NCBI GenBank assembly: GCA_043810925.1
Contig: JBDRNT010000067.1
Location: 1-38,373 of the forward strand
Length of the DNA: 38,373 bases
Direction of reading: 5' to 3'
Source of the DNA: Candidatus Eiseniibacteriota bacterium
GTDB lineage: Bacteria > Arandabacterota > Arandabacteria > Arandabacterales > Arandabacteraceae
Below are positions 20,742-26,364 of the stretch, piece by piece. Numbering within the stretch: the first letter of the stretch is position 1; the number at the start of each line of letters is the position of its first letter. The notes beneath the pieces are model-generated. The model was given only the letters and a program-made list of their open reading frames with translations, made no database searches and had not been told where the DNA came from. The translations under genes and the position numbers were made by a program.

Positions 20742-21206
20742 TCAGTCCAGGTGCTTTTCCATCATAGCCATGTTCAACCCGGCAAGCGCGCCGGCCGGGG
20801 TTCTGTGACTCACTACCTCGAGACCCATTCGCTCATAGAAGGGTACAGCTGTCGGAAACGCACCGAGTTTCACGCGTGTATGGCCACCCGCGCGAATCGC
20901 GGATTCCGCCGCCTCGTAGAGCAGACGGCCTACCCCCTTCCCCATGTGCTCAGGACCCACGTACAGTTTGGTCACCATTTCGCCTGAGACCGCGACCACC
21001 CCCACGATGCGCGCGCCGTCCCGGGCAACCAGGTATGACTGGGCCTGTGACTCGTTGCGGACGTGTTCGAGCGAACCCCGTTGTGATACCAGGAAGTCCG
21101 TTTGAGCGTCAGTGAGGCCCTCGCGTTCTCCCAGCCAGGTGTATGATGACTGAAGAAGCTCGTTCACCGCTTCGGTCTCAGCGTCGGTCATCCGTGTCAT
21201 TGTCAT
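20742..21206 (-). CDS. GNAT-family N-acetyltransferase
   Basis: KLYVGPEHMGKGVGRLL acetyl-CoA motif, AVPFYERMG; start uncertain among ATGs at 21206, 21200 and 21191. Confidence 0.85.
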   Translation of the reverse strand: MTMTRMTDAETEAVNELLQSSYTWLGEREGLTDAQTDFLVSQRGSLEHVRNESQAQSYLVARDGARIVGVVAVSGEMVTKLYVGPEHMGKGVGRLLYEAAESAIRAGGHTRVKLGAFPTAVPFYERMGLEVVSHRTPAGALAGLNMAMMEKHLD

Positions 21207-21636
21207 CCAGAATCTCCATGACCATCTTCGTGACTTCCTCAGCATACAGCACGCATTGCCCGAGCAGATTGCCGGCTTCAAACTTCTGCATCCCCTCGTC
21301 AGTATCCAGGTCACATCCTGTCAGTACTTCACAGTCAGTGGATCCGTACTTGGTCTGGAATCGTCCAATCAAGTCCCGAACACGGTCATAGCAGTCTGCT
21401 ACGGTCTCATGAGGAGAGGATCTGCCTGTAAACAGACCTATCGCCATGATACCGCCGCTTATGGCTCCACACATCCCGGACGTTCTCGCAATACCGCTGC
21501 AAAAACCGGTAGCTATCCTCGGAATAAGATCGCTCTTGATTCCCTTGCTTTCAGCCACGGAAAGCAGAATGCTCTCCGCTCAGTAATAACCGGACCGAAA
21601 CAACTCGCCACTTCTTCGCGATGTCTTCTCACTCAT
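21178..21636 (-). CDS. C_GCAxxG_C_C-family redox protein, probable selenoprotein (152 aa, UGA at codon 19)
   Basis: ATG 21636 with AAGGA RBS reads MSEKTSRRSGELFRSGYY-UGA-AESILLSV and continues in frame into the ORF-track ORF 21178..21558 (GFCSG, MCGAISGG, GSTDC..L, QC). Confidence 0.85.
21546..21566 (-). promoter_or_regulatory. Candidate bacterial SECIS hairpin
   Basis: UGCUUUC-CGUGGCU-GAAAGCA starting 13 nt after the UGA (21580-21582); apical loop ~20 nt from UGA with G in loop position 2. Confidence 0.6.
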
Positions 21637-21936
21637 CCGATCGATCCTTCCATCATTCTCATCTCAACACCTACACTGTCTGGTTATCCGAATCCCGGAC
21701 ACTTGTCAACACAATCGTGATCTGAGCGACCGGGCAAGCGTGTTGACGAGTGGTTGAGATTACGGTAACTATAAAGTGGAGGGCAAGATCAGGTTATCCC
21801 TGATTCTTTTCTGTCCGGGCTTTCTGACTTCGCAACCCGGTGTTGCCGATGCGGGCGCGACCGGCGTTCGGGCCGATGAAGCAGTTTGGAGATCTCCGGG
21901 TTCCTGATTGGGCCGGAAACAAGAACGGGACACTCG

Positions 21937-22587
21937 ATGCAAAGCAGCAGGCTTAAGCCATCAGTGACTACCTCGTTGACAAAGAAGAGCCTGATGGAGG
22001 GTGCAGCATACTTGGCTGCACGCGACAAGGACCTTGCACGACTTCTTAAGACCGATGGTGTACCACCGCTCTGGGCACGAAGGCCCGGTTTTTCGACATT
22101 GATCCAGATCATTCTGGAGCAGCAGGTATCTCTTGCTTCAGGCAAAGCCGCGCACCGTCGACTGGTCGATAACGTGATGCCGTTTACGCCGGCCCGCTTT
22201 CTGGAAGCAGGCTCATCATACCTGAGGACGCTTGGCATTACTCGCCAGAAATCCGGCTATTGCATCAATGTTGCCGAAGCAATCCTCGAGGACCGGCTTG
22301 GCCTCAGATCTCTATCCAGGATGGATGATGTTGCTGTCGCCGAAACGCTCACCCGAGTCAAAGGTATCGGTACCTGGACGGCTGAGATCTATCTCCTCAT
22401 GGCCTTACGCAGGCCGGATATCTGGCCCTCCGGGGATATTGCGCTTATAAGAACGATGCAGAAGATCAAGAAACTCCGTAAGTACCCATCTGCAAGCACA
22501 CAATCCAGAATCGTTCGAGCGTGGCGACCGTTCCGGTCGGTTGCGGCCAGGATGCTTTGGCATCACTACTTGTCTAATGAGCTTTAG
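21937..22587 (+). CDS. DNA-3-methyladenine glycosylase II (AlkA-like, HhH-GPD)
   Basis: ILEQQVSLAS, HhH motif LTRVKGIGTWTAEIYL, RPDIWPSGDIAL, W.PFRSVAAR.LW; start uncertain. Confidence 0.9.
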   Translation: MQSSRLKPSVTTSLTKKSLMEGAAYLAARDKDLARLLKTDGVPPLWARRPGFSTLIQIILEQQVSLASGKAAHRRLVDNVMPFTPARFLEAGSSYLRTLGITRQKSGYCINVAEAILEDRLGLRSLSRMDDVAVAETLTRVKGIGTWTAEIYLLMALRRPDIWPSGDIALIRTMQKIKKLRKYPSASTQSRIVRAWRPFRSVAARMLWHHYLSNEL

Positions 22588-22590
22588 CGG

Positions 22591-23154
22591 TCACCGGAGG
22601 TAATGAAACCGCATCGAGGCTACCCGCCCCGCGCTATCGAAGCGTATCCCCTCCTTCTTAAGCAAGGCCCGTTTCATCTCGGGCCCTCCCTGGTAGCCAC
22701 CGATATGCCGGTCCGAGCGAACGGCCCGGTGACAGGGCACGATAATGGGAAACGGGTTAGTCGCAAGGGCATTTCCAACAGCCCGTGCTCCGTTTCTCTT
22801 TCCCAGGTATGCTGCGATGAGTTGATACGTACTTACACTCCCGCGTGGAATCCCGTGCTCCGCGCGCAGAACACGCTGTTGAAACTCGGAACATAAACTC
22901 AGGTCTGCAACGTCGAGTGAGAACTCTATCTCCTCTCCTTCCAGAAACCTCCTGATTGAAGTAGCTACGGCATCGATTTCTGCGCAGGAGACCGCACGCG
23001 AATTCGGGTAGAGCTCAAACACCCGGTCTTGAGCGGACAGCCCGGACTTTGAGAGTAAGACCCGGACGATCCTGGCGTTGCCACCGGATCCGCTCCAGAT
23101 GACAGCCACAGGCCCGTAAGGAGTTTTCCTGATGGTCTTTCCATTCATATGCAT
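22591..23154 (-). CDS. ogt: Methylated-DNA--protein-cysteine methyltransferase
   Basis: IPRG..STY..IA, ARAVGNALATNP.PIIVPCHRAV, GGY.GG..MKR.LL..EG; start uncertain (23154 or 23148). Confidence 0.9.
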   Translation of the reverse strand: MHMNGKTIRKTPYGPVAVIWSGSGGNARIVRVLLSKSGLSAQDRVFELYPNSRAVSCAEIDAVATSIRRFLEGEEIEFSLDVADLSLCSEFQQRVLRAEHGIPRGSVSTYQLIAAYLGKRNGARAVGNALATNPFPIIVPCHRAVRSDRHIGGYQGGPEMKRALLKKEGIRFDSAGRVASMRFHYLR

Positions 23155-23226
23155 ACTACATGTACCGCACTTCCAAATATGTATCAATGATATATCGACG
23201 ACTCGACTACCCTCAGCAGCCAATTG

Positions 23227-26200
23227 TCAGTGGATACGAAGGATCTTCTCGGTGGCAGTGAATGAAGCGGACCTGAGCATGACGAAGTAAAGCCCGGGAG
23301 AGACCCGGCTCCCCGATACGCTTCTCCCCGACCAGCGCACGTTGTGGCGGCCCGGGGGAAGTACCTCGTCTACCAGAGTGGCAACGTGACGGCCGTTCAC
23401 GTCCCAGACGGTGATGTGGGCCGGACCTCGCTCGGCCAAGCCGAAGGCGATGCTCGTCGTGCTCGTAAACGGATTGGGCTTGCCTGCCGCCAAGAAATAG
23501 GTGTGCCTGCCGGGTGGGAGATCGGGGACAGATGTCAGGCTGGCATCAAGCGCTGCATCGGAACTCTCGTTCCCGGTGGAATCCGTGGCAGTCACGTGGT
23601 ACCACAGGTAGGGGTGGTCGGTTACATCCATCAGTGGCAGAACAGTCTGGTCGATCAACACAGCGCTTCCGAACTCACCGTCATCCGATCCATACACCGA
23701 AAAACGACGGAAGTCCGGCTGAGGACATCCATCCCAGCTGAGCAGGCTGTCCGCCAGCATGAGACCCGTCGGGACGGATGGAGCAAGATTATCCACAGAG
23801 ACACCGCTATCCGGTTCACTGACATAGTAAACCGCGGTATCCGCCGTTTGGGCGGTGACTACGAATACTGAGCAGTGCCCGCCGGCTTCGCCTGAATCCA
23901 CGACGGTCTGTGCCGTGACGGTATACTCCTGCTCGTGGGTGGCGGGTGCACTCCCTGCGACCATCCACTGACCGGGCGGGAAGCCCACCGGCGTGGACCC
24001 ACTATCTACCCGACGCCAGACGCCGTAGCCGATGATGGAGTCCGGCTCGGAAGCAAAGTCATACGCCGATCTGTTGAAACGCACACTGACCCAGCCTCCC
24101 TCATCCCCCGGCACGTCTGTGATGGCCTCGATACCGGGTTCCGCGTCGAGCCACTCCAACATGAGGGAGGCCACGGCGGGGTTAATCTTGTAACCGGTAT
24201 AACGGTGCATAGAGCGCCAGTAGAGCTCCGTCTCCGGCCACTCGAGGTCGGTCCAGACACCCACCGGGGTGTCTTGCCAATGGATGCTGTCGGCGCTTAC
24301 CTCCCACGTTACACTGTCGGTCTGTGAGGTCGTCAGGCGGACCGAGCGGATCGTGTCGGCGGGCGCGGTGACCGGAAGCCTGAGTGACTGCCCGGCATCC
24401 GCATCGGTGTCAACGAAGCGGTTAAGGATATTCACGATCTTGATGCCTATATCGTCAAAGGTTACAAATGCAAGGTCACCGGAGACTGCTATGTCCTTTG
24501 CGTGCCCCTCTATGACATAGCTTGCCACTTCAATCACCTTGACCGGGTCTGAAATATCAAAGACCATGAGGCCGCCGTCAGTCCCGTACCAATTAGCTGC
24601 GTACGCATAGTTCCCTGCAAGTGAAATACTGTAGACGGCAGTCCCGGTCCATTTGTTACCACGCTTTACCGGACTCGTGGGGTCGGACACATCGCATACA
24701 ATCACCCCGCCCGTCGCATCGGCAATGTACGCGAAGTCCCCCGACACTGCAACGTCCCTGGCAAACACGTAGGTATCGCAGGAGCCGACGGGAGCCGGGT
24801 TTGAAGGAACTGAGATATCAAACACGATGAGGCCGCTGTCGCGGTCGGCAACATAAGCATGGTCGCCGGCGACCATGATGCCTATCGCAATCCCGTCGGT
24901 ATCGTGATAGCCCACCTGTACGGGACTTGACGGAGTAGAGATATCAACCACGACCAGGCCGCCATAACTACTTACTACATAGGCATGGTCGCCGGATATT
25001 GTGACATCATATGCCGGGTCGTCGGTAACAAGGGCACCTACTCCCACAGGTGCGGATGGAGTCGAGATGTCAATAATGATAAGACCATTATCACCGGCAG
25101 CCACGTATGCATAATCGCCGTCCACCTCCACCTTCTTGGCATCACCACCGGTGTACCACGAACCAACCTCGATCGGGTTTGTGGGATCTGAAATATCGAA
25201 CACCACAAGACCGGTCTGGCGGCTGACCATGTATGCATGATCGCCGGACACCGCAATCCCCTCCGCGTAGCCGATATGATAGCCCCAGCCAATCTCTTCA
25301 GGAATCACCGGGGTCCCGATATCGATCTTCATGAAGCCACCGGTACCATTCGCAACACAGGCGTACTCGGCGGCAACGGCAACGCCGCCCGCGTTTCCGC
25401 CGGTATCAAACGAGCCGATCTCAGCGGGGTTTGACGGGTCGGAGACATCCATCGCAATGAGGCCGTTCAAGTCATCAGCCACATATACATGGTCACCGCT
25501 GACTCCAACGTCCCTTGCACTCCCATCTGTATCGCATGAACCGATTTCACCAGGACTTGAGGGGACAGAGATATCGAGGACGACGATACCATTGCTTCCG
25601 TCGGCAACATATGCGCAGTCCCCCGATACCGCCACCGCACTCGCAAGGCCGTCCGTATCGTAGGAGCCGACCTCAGTCGGACTGGAGGGGTCGGAGATAT
25701 CGAGGACGACGATGCCGTTGCTGCCGTCGGCGACGTATGCCCGGTCGCCTGCAACCGCAACATCACCGGCCTCCCCGTCGGTGTCGTATGAACCTATCTT
25801 GACGGGATTCGAGGCAACCGAAATATCGAACGTGGTGAGGCCGTGCGTTCCATCCGCCACATATGCACACTTGCCCGCAAGCGCTATTCCCGAGGCTGAT
25901 CCGCCGCTGCTTGAGGACCCGGCAAGCGTCGGGCTGGAGGCAATCGAAATGTCTATGACGACCAGGCCCCTGGCTCCGTCAGCCACATATGCCCAATCCC
26001 CGGCCACCGCTACATCGTTGGCTTCCCCGTCAGTATCATAGGAGCCAATCTCGATAGGGGCAAACGGAGCTTTGATTTGGAGTACAACCAGCCCCCCGGG
26101 GCCATCTGCTATGTACGCGTACTTCCCTGCAATTGCAACTCGTCTGGCATCGCCGCCCGTGGCACAGGAACCCAGCGCTGCCATTTCGTATTCCGGAAGC

Positions 26201-26364
26201 CTGAGCTCGCCTGCGCCCGTATCCCAGTGGGCTTTGGTCCAGAGGGTATCAGTGTAGTCCAAGGATGTGAAGTCCTCAGTCCACGATCCGGCCGAGGCTG
26301 GAGATATCTGGAATATTATGAGGTTTGCCGCAAGAGCTGCCAGAGCCGCGATCCGCAGGGTCAA
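23227..26364 (-). CDS. Secreted LVIVD-repeat protein (14 repeats) with C-terminal FlgD-Ig-like domain
   Basis: TTG start with AAAGGAG RBS; signal peptide ending ASA; 14 ~42-aa repeats 'A..VAVSGD.AYVADG..GL.V.DIS.P..P..VG..DT'; C-terminus PNPF...VWDVNGRHVATL...W.G......SPGLYFV. Confidence 0.88.
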   Translation of the reverse strand: MTLRIAALAALAANLIIFQISPASAGSWTEDFTSLDYTDTLWTKAHWDTGAGELRLPEYEMAALGSCATGGDARRVAIAGKYAYIADGPGGLVVLQIKAPFAPIEIGSYDTDGEANDVAVAGDWAYVADGARGLVVIDISIASSPTLAGSSSSGGSASGIALAGKCAYVADGTHGLTTFDISVASNPVKIGSYDTDGEAGDVAVAGDRAYVADGSNGIVVLDISDPSSPTEVGSYDTDGLASAVAVSGDCAYVADGSNGIVVLDISVPSSPGEIGSCDTDGSARDVGVSGDHVYVADDLNGLIAMDVSDPSNPAEIGSFDTGGNAGGVAVAAEYACVANGTGGFMKIDIGTPVIPEEIGWGYHIGYAEGIAVSGDHAYMVSRQTGLVVFDISDPTNPIEVGSWYTGGDAKKVEVDGDYAYVAAGDNGLIIIDISTPSAPVGVGALVTDDPAYDVTISGDHAYVVSSYGGLVVVDISTPSSPVQVGYHDTDGIAIGIMVAGDHAYVADRDSGLIVFDISVPSNPAPVGSCDTYVFARDVAVSGDFAYIADATGGVIVCDVSDPTSPVKRGNKWTGTAVYSISLAGNYAYAANWYGTDGGLMVFDISDPVKVIEVASYVIEGHAKDIAVSGDLAFVTFDDIGIKIVNILNRFVDTDADAGQSLRLPVTAPADTIRSVRLTTSQTDSVTWEVSADSIHWQDTPVGVWTDLEWPETELYWRSMHRYTGYKINPAVASLMLEWLDAEPGIEAITDVPGDEGGWVSVRFNRSAYDFASEPDSIIGYGVWRRVDSGSTPVGFPPGQWMVAGSAPATHEQEYTVTAQTVVDSGEAGGHCSVFVVTAQTADTAVYYVSEPDSGVSVDNLAPSVPTGLMLADSLLSWDGCPQPDFRRFSVYGSDDGEFGSAVLIDQTVLPLMDVTDHPYLWYHVTATDSTGNESSDAALDASLTSVPDLPPGRHTYFLAAGKPNPFTSTTSIAFGLAERGPAHITVWDVNGRHVATLVDEVLPPGRHNVRWSGRSVSGSRVSPGLYFVMLRSASFTATEKILRIH

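Follow-up and report, generated by a model that had tools for sequence, protein, structure and literature searches.

Recoding of UGA as selenocysteine (Sec) by way of SelB and a SECIS hairpin has its paradigm in E. coli fdhF. The only strong structural relative of the protein described here is split-Soret cytochrome c (1H21), the structure of which was reportedly published by Abreu et al. in 2003, its centre being reported as a [2Fe-2S] cluster bound by Cys residues of the N-terminal domain. The C_GCAxxG_C_C family appears among the selenoprotein families in the review tables of PMC9312934 and PMC13188914, the motif column for the family being '-' in both, and the latter, a 2026 review, gives two forms of C_GCAxxG_C_C selenoprotein, form 1 and form 2. 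Within the main texts of PMC1976440 and PMC2398784 the family is not mentioned by the names searched. For the bacterial SECIS (bSECIS), the model given in PMC13188914 consists of an apical loop of 3-9 nt on an upper stem of 4-16 bp, a G within the first two loop nucleotides, a UGA-to-loop spacing of 16-37 nt, and a minimum free energy (MFE) of -7.5 kcal/mol or lower. Together with the NCBIfam name of TIGR01909, "C-GCAxxG-C-C family (seleno)protein", the tables of both reviews bear out the statement of the earlier note on this DNA that Sec-containing members of the family are known. The gene described here is a further member of this already catalogued selenoprotein family, from a small uncultured phylum, and not a discovery.

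The window, by which we mean the whole stretch of 38,373 nucleotides that was analysed, was read directly and translated. On its minus strand an ATG at 21636-21634 opens a frame of 152 codons, in which 18 sense codons are followed by an in-frame TGA at 21582-21580 as codon 19. Past this TGA the frame stays open to the terminal TGA at 21180-21178, and with codon 19 read as Sec the product is a protein of 152 residues containing ...LFRSGYY[U]AESILLSV.... A Shine-Dalgarno-like GGAAGGA is located at 21651-21645, 8 nt 5' of the ATG, and the frame is bounded upstream by another in-frame TGA, 10 codons before the ATG. The table-11 ORF listing holds solely 21178..21558, a 126-aa ORF starting at GTG 21558 and lacking the first conserved Cys/Sec. 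Sequence, translation and listing agree in these respects with the earlier note, which had read an RBS-led ATG at 21636 in frame with the downstream ORF, and had held that the ORF track truncates the gene to 126 aa. The features of the locus are as follows.

21178..21636, minus strand: probable selenoprotein coding sequence of the C_GCAxxG_C_C family, 152 residues, Sec at codon 19 (sequence, translation, PF09719, TIGR01909)
21580..21582, minus strand: in-frame TGA, probably Sec, residue 19, in the column of the family's first invariant Cys (homologue alignments)
21546..21566, minus strand: proposed SECIS hairpin H2 (folding, bSECIS criteria, comparison of Sec and Cys forms)
21557..21579, minus strand: alternative hairpin H1 (folding)
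21645..21651, minus strand: Shine-Dalgarno-like GGAAGGA (sequence)
21178..21558, minus strand: 126-aa ORF of standard calling, GTG start (ORF listing)
20742..21200, minus strand: downstream GNAT acetyltransferase gene (frame, ATGs, PF13673 E 4.8e-16)

We propose, with a probability of about 0.88, that 21636-21178 of the minus strand is one gene, encoding a 152-residue C_GCAxxG_C_C selenoprotein, the UGA of which is decoded via hairpin H2. The orthologue in a genome of the same genus is 85% identical to the window protein, and over the 18 codons upstream of the TGA the two genes differ by five synonymous changes and one non-synonymous change. As judged from this ratio, the 18 codons are under purifying selection and therefore translated in the frame of the ATG. 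Decay of the gene, which the earlier note had named as a finding that would speak against its reading, is not seen.

Membership in the family was tested with Sec entered as Cys for the profile searches. Residues 17-142 were aligned on the complete profile of PF09719 (C_GCAxxG_C_C; positions 1-118 of 118) with an E value of 1e-26 and a score of 93.7 bits (cut-off 27), and TIGR01909 was matched with 66.8 bits against a cut-off of 47.4, both scores placing the protein in the family to which the earlier note had assigned it. Three narrower profiles stayed below their cut-offs: the DVU_1555 family (NF045669; 59.7 bits against 103), the HUGP/GUXX-star fusion selenoprotein (NF045501; 50.4 bits against 325) and split-Soret cytochrome c (NF047622; 16.3 bits against 400). 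The four-Cys pattern of the family is present, U19, C56 (in MCGAISGG) and C102 being invariant columns and C127 being aligned with Cys wherever a homologue fragment extends to that column. Compared with the known Sec-containing C_GCAxxG_C_C proteins, the window protein has the same full-length domain, the same four-Cys pattern and, like 27 other homologues that we found, Sec at the first Cys, and in both a hairpin with a G/U-containing loop lies 17-24 nt past the UGA. There is no difference of kind; the host phylum comprises 18 species genomes. The same genome also carries a paralogue (contig C104:80006-80770), in which two tandem C_GCAxxG_C_C domains lie in one 256-aa frame that is free of in-frame TGA; a tandem-domain paralogue arranged alike occurs in the same-genus genome (contig C7).

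The residue-19 column was then followed through homologues for pairing of Cys and UGA. A protein search of 61 related genomes gave 12 homologous places in 11 genomes, and with TGA read as Sec the column was invariant in all 12: five places had TGA and seven had TGC or TGT. The five TGA places were the window, the same-genus genome, one genome of the same order, and two places in one distant genome. A scan of named genome records gave 16 loci, and their codon for residue 19 was TGA in six (one of them being the same-genus genome again) and Cys in 10. Family matches were also detected in 85 of 151 genomes sampled from another phylum, that of one named record. Among the 150 matches listed, with 17 more besides, 19 carried an in-frame TGA, and in 18 of these 19 it was located at the first-Cys column, so that at least 18 Sec forms were present among the 150 matches listed. 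The 19th had Cys at the first-Cys column, and its two TGAs fell where the sequence is no longer family-like; this match (L074, contig C78:20231-20512) is a degenerate copy, probably a pseudogene. In another homologue, a Sec form (L037:3001-3437; 70% identity in the best segment), the family frame is lost after about residue 77, which is a frameshift or an assembly error.

All sets together gave 28 distinct Sec forms with Sec at the first-Cys position, and in every set examined the first-Cys column was either Cys or TGA. Judged from these alignments, the position of the TGA at residue 19 is not a matter of chance, and Sec at the first Cys is common in the C_GCAxxG_C_C family. The placing of UGA 21580-21582 on the family Cys by the earlier note was thus confirmed by 5 TGA to 7 Cys, by 6 TGA to 10 Cys and by 18 of 19 at the column, and the Cys/UGA pairing for which it had proposed a search was found in all sets. 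Nor is the UGA unique to this strain, since the same-genus genome and 26 further homologues have it in common.

The genome was next inspected for the machinery of Sec insertion, which the earlier note had supposed the organism to encode. In this assembly (91.7% complete, 185 contigs) all of selA, selB, selD and tRNA-Sec were identified, as in bacterial SelB/SECIS recoding: selA at 506.8 bits, selB by its wing-3 domain within a 636-aa frame, and selD in two copies. One selD is a selenoprotein gene itself (contig C89:56288-57423), with a single in-frame TGA at the classical ...SCAGU... position, followed by a SECIS-like hairpin of 7 bp with the loop CGGGU, a spacing of 16 nt and an energy of -10.0 kcal/mol, the same geometry as that of H2. 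The gene for tRNA-Sec, which was scored with Rfam at 74.2 bits and for which ARAGORN gave the anticodon TCA, is located about 120 nt downstream of this TGA-bearing selD. The second selD copy (contig C38:32076-32999; 395.5 bits) has no in-frame stop and lies inside an open frame of 738 aa, about twice the normal SelD length, which suggests fusion with another domain. Throughout the phylum, selA was detected in 17 of 18 species genomes, the one without it being 57% complete. TGA ends 496 of 1200 long stop-to-stop frames; since it is the commonest terminator and also ends the selenoprotein gene itself, TGA has not been globally reassigned.

Downstream of the UGA, two mutually exclusive hairpins were identified, designated H1 and H2 (positions are numbered from the U of UGA as +1). 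H1 (+4 to +26) has 10 bp, a loop of UUC and an energy of -14.2 kcal/mol, and is the MFE fold of the free RNA; with a loop without G and a spacing of 10 nt, it falls outside the bSECIS model. H2 (+17 to +37) has a stem of 7 bp, +17 to +23 pairing with +31 to +37, and its apical loop CGUGGCU (21559-21553) is located 20 nt past the UGA. A lower stem of 4 bp, +13 to +16 with +41 to +44, is possible in addition, and the structure then extends over 21570-21539. Loop size, stem length, loop G and spacing of H2 are all within the ranges of the model, the loop fits N1-G-[G/U]-N-N2, and the SECIS-like hairpin that the earlier note had seen after the UGA thus has the expected geometry (7-nt loop, 7-bp stem, 20 nt). 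Its energy, -7.1 kcal/mol without and -7.4 kcal/mol with the lower stem, narrowly misses the limit of -7.5, this being a hairpin-only energy that may differ from the one computed by bSECISearch. When the 12 nt following the first base of the UGA, assumed to be covered by the decoding ribosome, were excluded, H2 was the unconstrained MFE fold of the remainder. In the MFE fold a third hairpin of 5+4 bp with the loop GCGA lies 3' of H2 (21520-21543, minus strand; +40 to +63). It was rejected as a SECIS, being 46 nt from the UGA and too far for the model.

Comparison between the Sec forms and the Cys forms was then made at the same site. A hairpin fitting the three geometric bSECIS criteria was present in all 28 Sec forms, the spacing being 17-24 nt in 26 of them, and GU was included in the loop in 23; in the window the loop GUG is the conserved Val codon. 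For the contiguous stem alone, an energy of -7.5 kcal/mol or lower was reached in 16 of the 28 Sec forms and in none of the 15 Cys forms, three weak Sec cases having interrupted stems, which are beyond the scoring of a simple contiguous-stem scan. Among the Cys forms, a set that left out two near-identical Clostridium loci, four had no fitting hairpin and the median was 0. By this comparison, the hairpin at the Sec-form site is found only in the Sec forms. When the alignment cells of each hairpin were examined, those of H2 were paired in 75% for eight Sec forms versus 28.6% for three close Cys forms, and those of H1 in 82.5% versus 50%. The window gene and that of the same-genus genome, which differ in 57 of 141 codons overall, have no nucleotide difference over codons 17-33, the segment covering the UGA and H2; we count this identity as a probable sign of constraint at the level of RNA.

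Folding of the single sequence gave a different level of support. The 58-nt stretch folded no better than expected by chance (z = -0.69; 41 of 200 shuffles as good), and a SECIS-fitting hairpin at least as stable appeared in 71 of 1000 shuffles, so that H2 alone is not significant. For covariation in H2, between 49 and 232 of 500 shuffles reached the observed values, depending on the measure, which is not above control; for neither hairpin did the pair counts exceed the shuffled controls, and H1 and H2 were not discriminated in this way. The general MFE of +10 to +48 did not separate Sec forms from Cys forms. Since covariation did not exceed the control level, H2 was chosen on the SECIS model and on its position. 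Support for the hairpin as a SECIS is comparative, and does not come from the folding of the single sequence. Set beside bacterial SelB/SECIS recoding, the locus is alike in having an in-frame UGA and a hairpin within the coding region, with G at loop position 2, 20 nt past the UGA; it differs in the hairpin energy, -7.1 or -7.4 as against -7.5, and in that the proposed SECIS shares 5'-arm sequence with the stronger, competing H1.

Based on these observations, we propose the following order of events. Translation would start at ATG 21636, and a ribosome arriving at UGA 21582-21580 would have unwound H1, which begins 1 nt past the UGA, if unwinding follows the order supposed here. With H1 unwound, the sequence would be free to fold into H2, which, rather than H1, would be the SelB-binding element; SelB with Sec-tRNA(Sec) would bind there and selenocysteine would be inserted. 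Selenium is probably incorporated at codon 19. The gene would then end at the second TGA, which has no such hairpin. In the finished protein, Sec19 would perhaps coordinate an iron or iron-sulfur centre, and the protein would then be a small cytoplasmic protein of electron transfer or metal handling.

The selenoprotein gene heads a run of minus-strand genes, followed by the GNAT acetyltransferase gene, a gene for an esterase-family protein and one for a DUF4846 protein. The GNAT gene starts at ATG 21200 or 21191 and overlaps the 3' end of the selenoprotein gene by 23 or 14 nt, for which reason it is a probable operon partner. An overlapping ORF of 168 aa occupies the GNAT position at the same-genus locus, where it was placed by position alone. 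Upstream are a gene for an HhH-GPD glycosylase (21886-22584, plus strand) and one for O6-methylguanine-DNA methyltransferase (22594-23223, minus strand). The latter has the usual PCHR Cys and is the Cys form of an enzyme for which Sec forms in other organisms are given in a review table. Farther upstream, an ORF of 1045 aa (23227-26364, minus strand) repeats the unit ...GD.AYVAD...GL.V.DIS.P..P... many times. Neither a sigma-70-like promoter nor a terminator of note was found around the selenoprotein gene. The neighbours differ among seven homologous loci and are not shared with more distant homologues, and because of this the context yields no function. The sole recurrence is an ArsR-type regulator beside the gene in three of the seven loci (L034:1799-4587, L036:1836-4570 and L032:2439-3011), accompanied in two of these by a SAM methyltransferase (Methyltransf_31) and by a DsrE-like gene. 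Such neighbours hint weakly at a connection with the handling of metalloids or sulfur, and the ArsR recurrence, 3 of 7, was set aside as too little to build on as a conserved neighbourhood.

The fold of the protein was predicted by AlphaFold2 using 12 sequences, and the model was all-helical with a pLDDT of 90.2. The best structural match in a VIA-align wide search was 1H21_A (chain residues 25-195), with a Z score of 15.9 and an rmsd of 3.6 A over 139 of 152 residues; the matching part is the iron-centre (N-terminal) domain of split-Soret cytochrome c. CyuA and L-serine dehydratase were rejected as fold relatives, their Z scores of 5.8-5.9 being below a meaningful level for helical proteins. 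Foldseek against the PDB gave 1H21 a probability of 0.99 but an E value of 0.27, and no match at E 0.001 or better. By sequence, the family profile found 1H21 with an E value of 0.0024 and the CGAxxG motif in alignment; the similarity is weak, and the single protein reached 1H21 only at E 0.39. A split-Soret-like protein (116 bits, short of the NF047622 cut-off), encoded in a genome that also carries a homologue, has Cys at all four positions corresponding to U19, C56, C102 and C127. The likeness to split-Soret cytochrome c thus includes the fold of the N-terminal domain, the aligned CGAxxG motif and, via this split-Soret-like homologue, the four Cys positions. Unlike split-Soret cytochrome c, the window protein has neither a haem domain nor CXXCH, as read from its sequence. 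No Tat signal is evident in it by eye, whereas the split-Soret-like homologue has an SRRDLI motif, and at the putative first ligand position the window protein has Sec where the split-Soret system has Cys.

Two explanations would remove selenium from this locus altogether. The UGA might be a true stop, which would leave an 18-residue leader peptide and a 126-aa protein from GTG 21558, or else a pseudogene of a Cys form. Standard ORF calling yields exactly this split, and the SECIS hairpin by itself is not significant; yet 28 distinct homologues, belonging to several lineages, have TGA in this column, the 18 upstream codons, with five synonymous changes to one non-synonymous, are kept by purifying selection, the 126-aa product would miss an invariant residue of the family, and the Sec machinery is complete. 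We therefore regard termination at codon 19 as very improbable. Alternatively, the TGA might stand for TGC or TGT owing to a sequencing or assembly error, or a near-cognate tRNA for Trp or Cys might decode it with no selenium involved. The assembly is in 185 contigs, and the public contigs that match part of the stretch, all from one study, end short of the codon region or differ there: an identical one stops at 21579, a single base before the TGA is reached, and a second one, about 85% alike, touches the TGA with six differences. Against this stand the TGA at the identical codon of the same-genus genome, within an identical stretch of 51 nt, the TGA of the 26 further homologues, the occurrence of SECIS-position hairpins in the Sec forms but not in the Cys forms, and the presence of tRNA-Sec and selB, so that an error or selenium-free read-through is hardly credible. 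Decoding of codon 19 as Sec in a single gene of 152 residues is the reading that we retain.

The remaining alternative accepts this decoding and concerns only the role of the residue. Sec19 might be a free redox-active selenol, in line with the redox-active site supposed by the earlier note, forming a selenenylsulfide with another conserved Cys in the manner of thiol oxidoreductase-like selenoproteins and binding no metal. Such a role accords with the Pfam description of PF09719, 'Putative redox-active protein', and with papers mentioning family members, in which they 'could be redox-active' and nothing further is said. On the other side, residue 19 is not part of a UxxC/CxxU-type motif, and the family motif is given as '-' in the review tables (PMC9312934, PMC13188914). 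Four invariant and widely spaced Cys suit a metal site, the sole strong structural relative is an iron-centre domain, and the split-Soret-like homologue keeps all four Cys. The free selenol is accordingly a possibility that we place somewhat below even odds. Because of the match to the 1H21 fold and the alignment of the four Cys, Sec19 is perhaps a ligand of a metal centre; from the model and the conservation of Cys, we give an about even chance to its coordinating an iron or iron-sulfur centre, and such a role appears at least as likely as that of a free redox selenol. More tentatively, and a little short of even odds, residue 19 could be the selenolate ligand of a [2Fe-2S]-like centre in a stand-alone split-Soret iron-centre domain, in which a change between Cys and Sec from lineage to lineage would tune the potential or reactivity of the cluster, and H1 could gate the formation of the SECIS at decoding.

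For annotation, one 152-residue selenoprotein should replace the 126-aa fragment, and the same correction of the gene model is due in the same-genus genome and in at least 26 further homologues. The locus also bears witness to a Sec system at work throughout a small uncultured phylum, in which selA was present in 17 of 18 genomes. The link in fold and the four conserved Cys lead to a testable hypothesis on the function of the family, namely a Cys4 or Cys3Sec metal centre. If residue 19 is indeed a ligand that alternates between Cys and Sec at a [2Fe-2S]-like centre, the family would be a natural and widespread series of selenium- versus sulfur-ligated Fe-S proteins.
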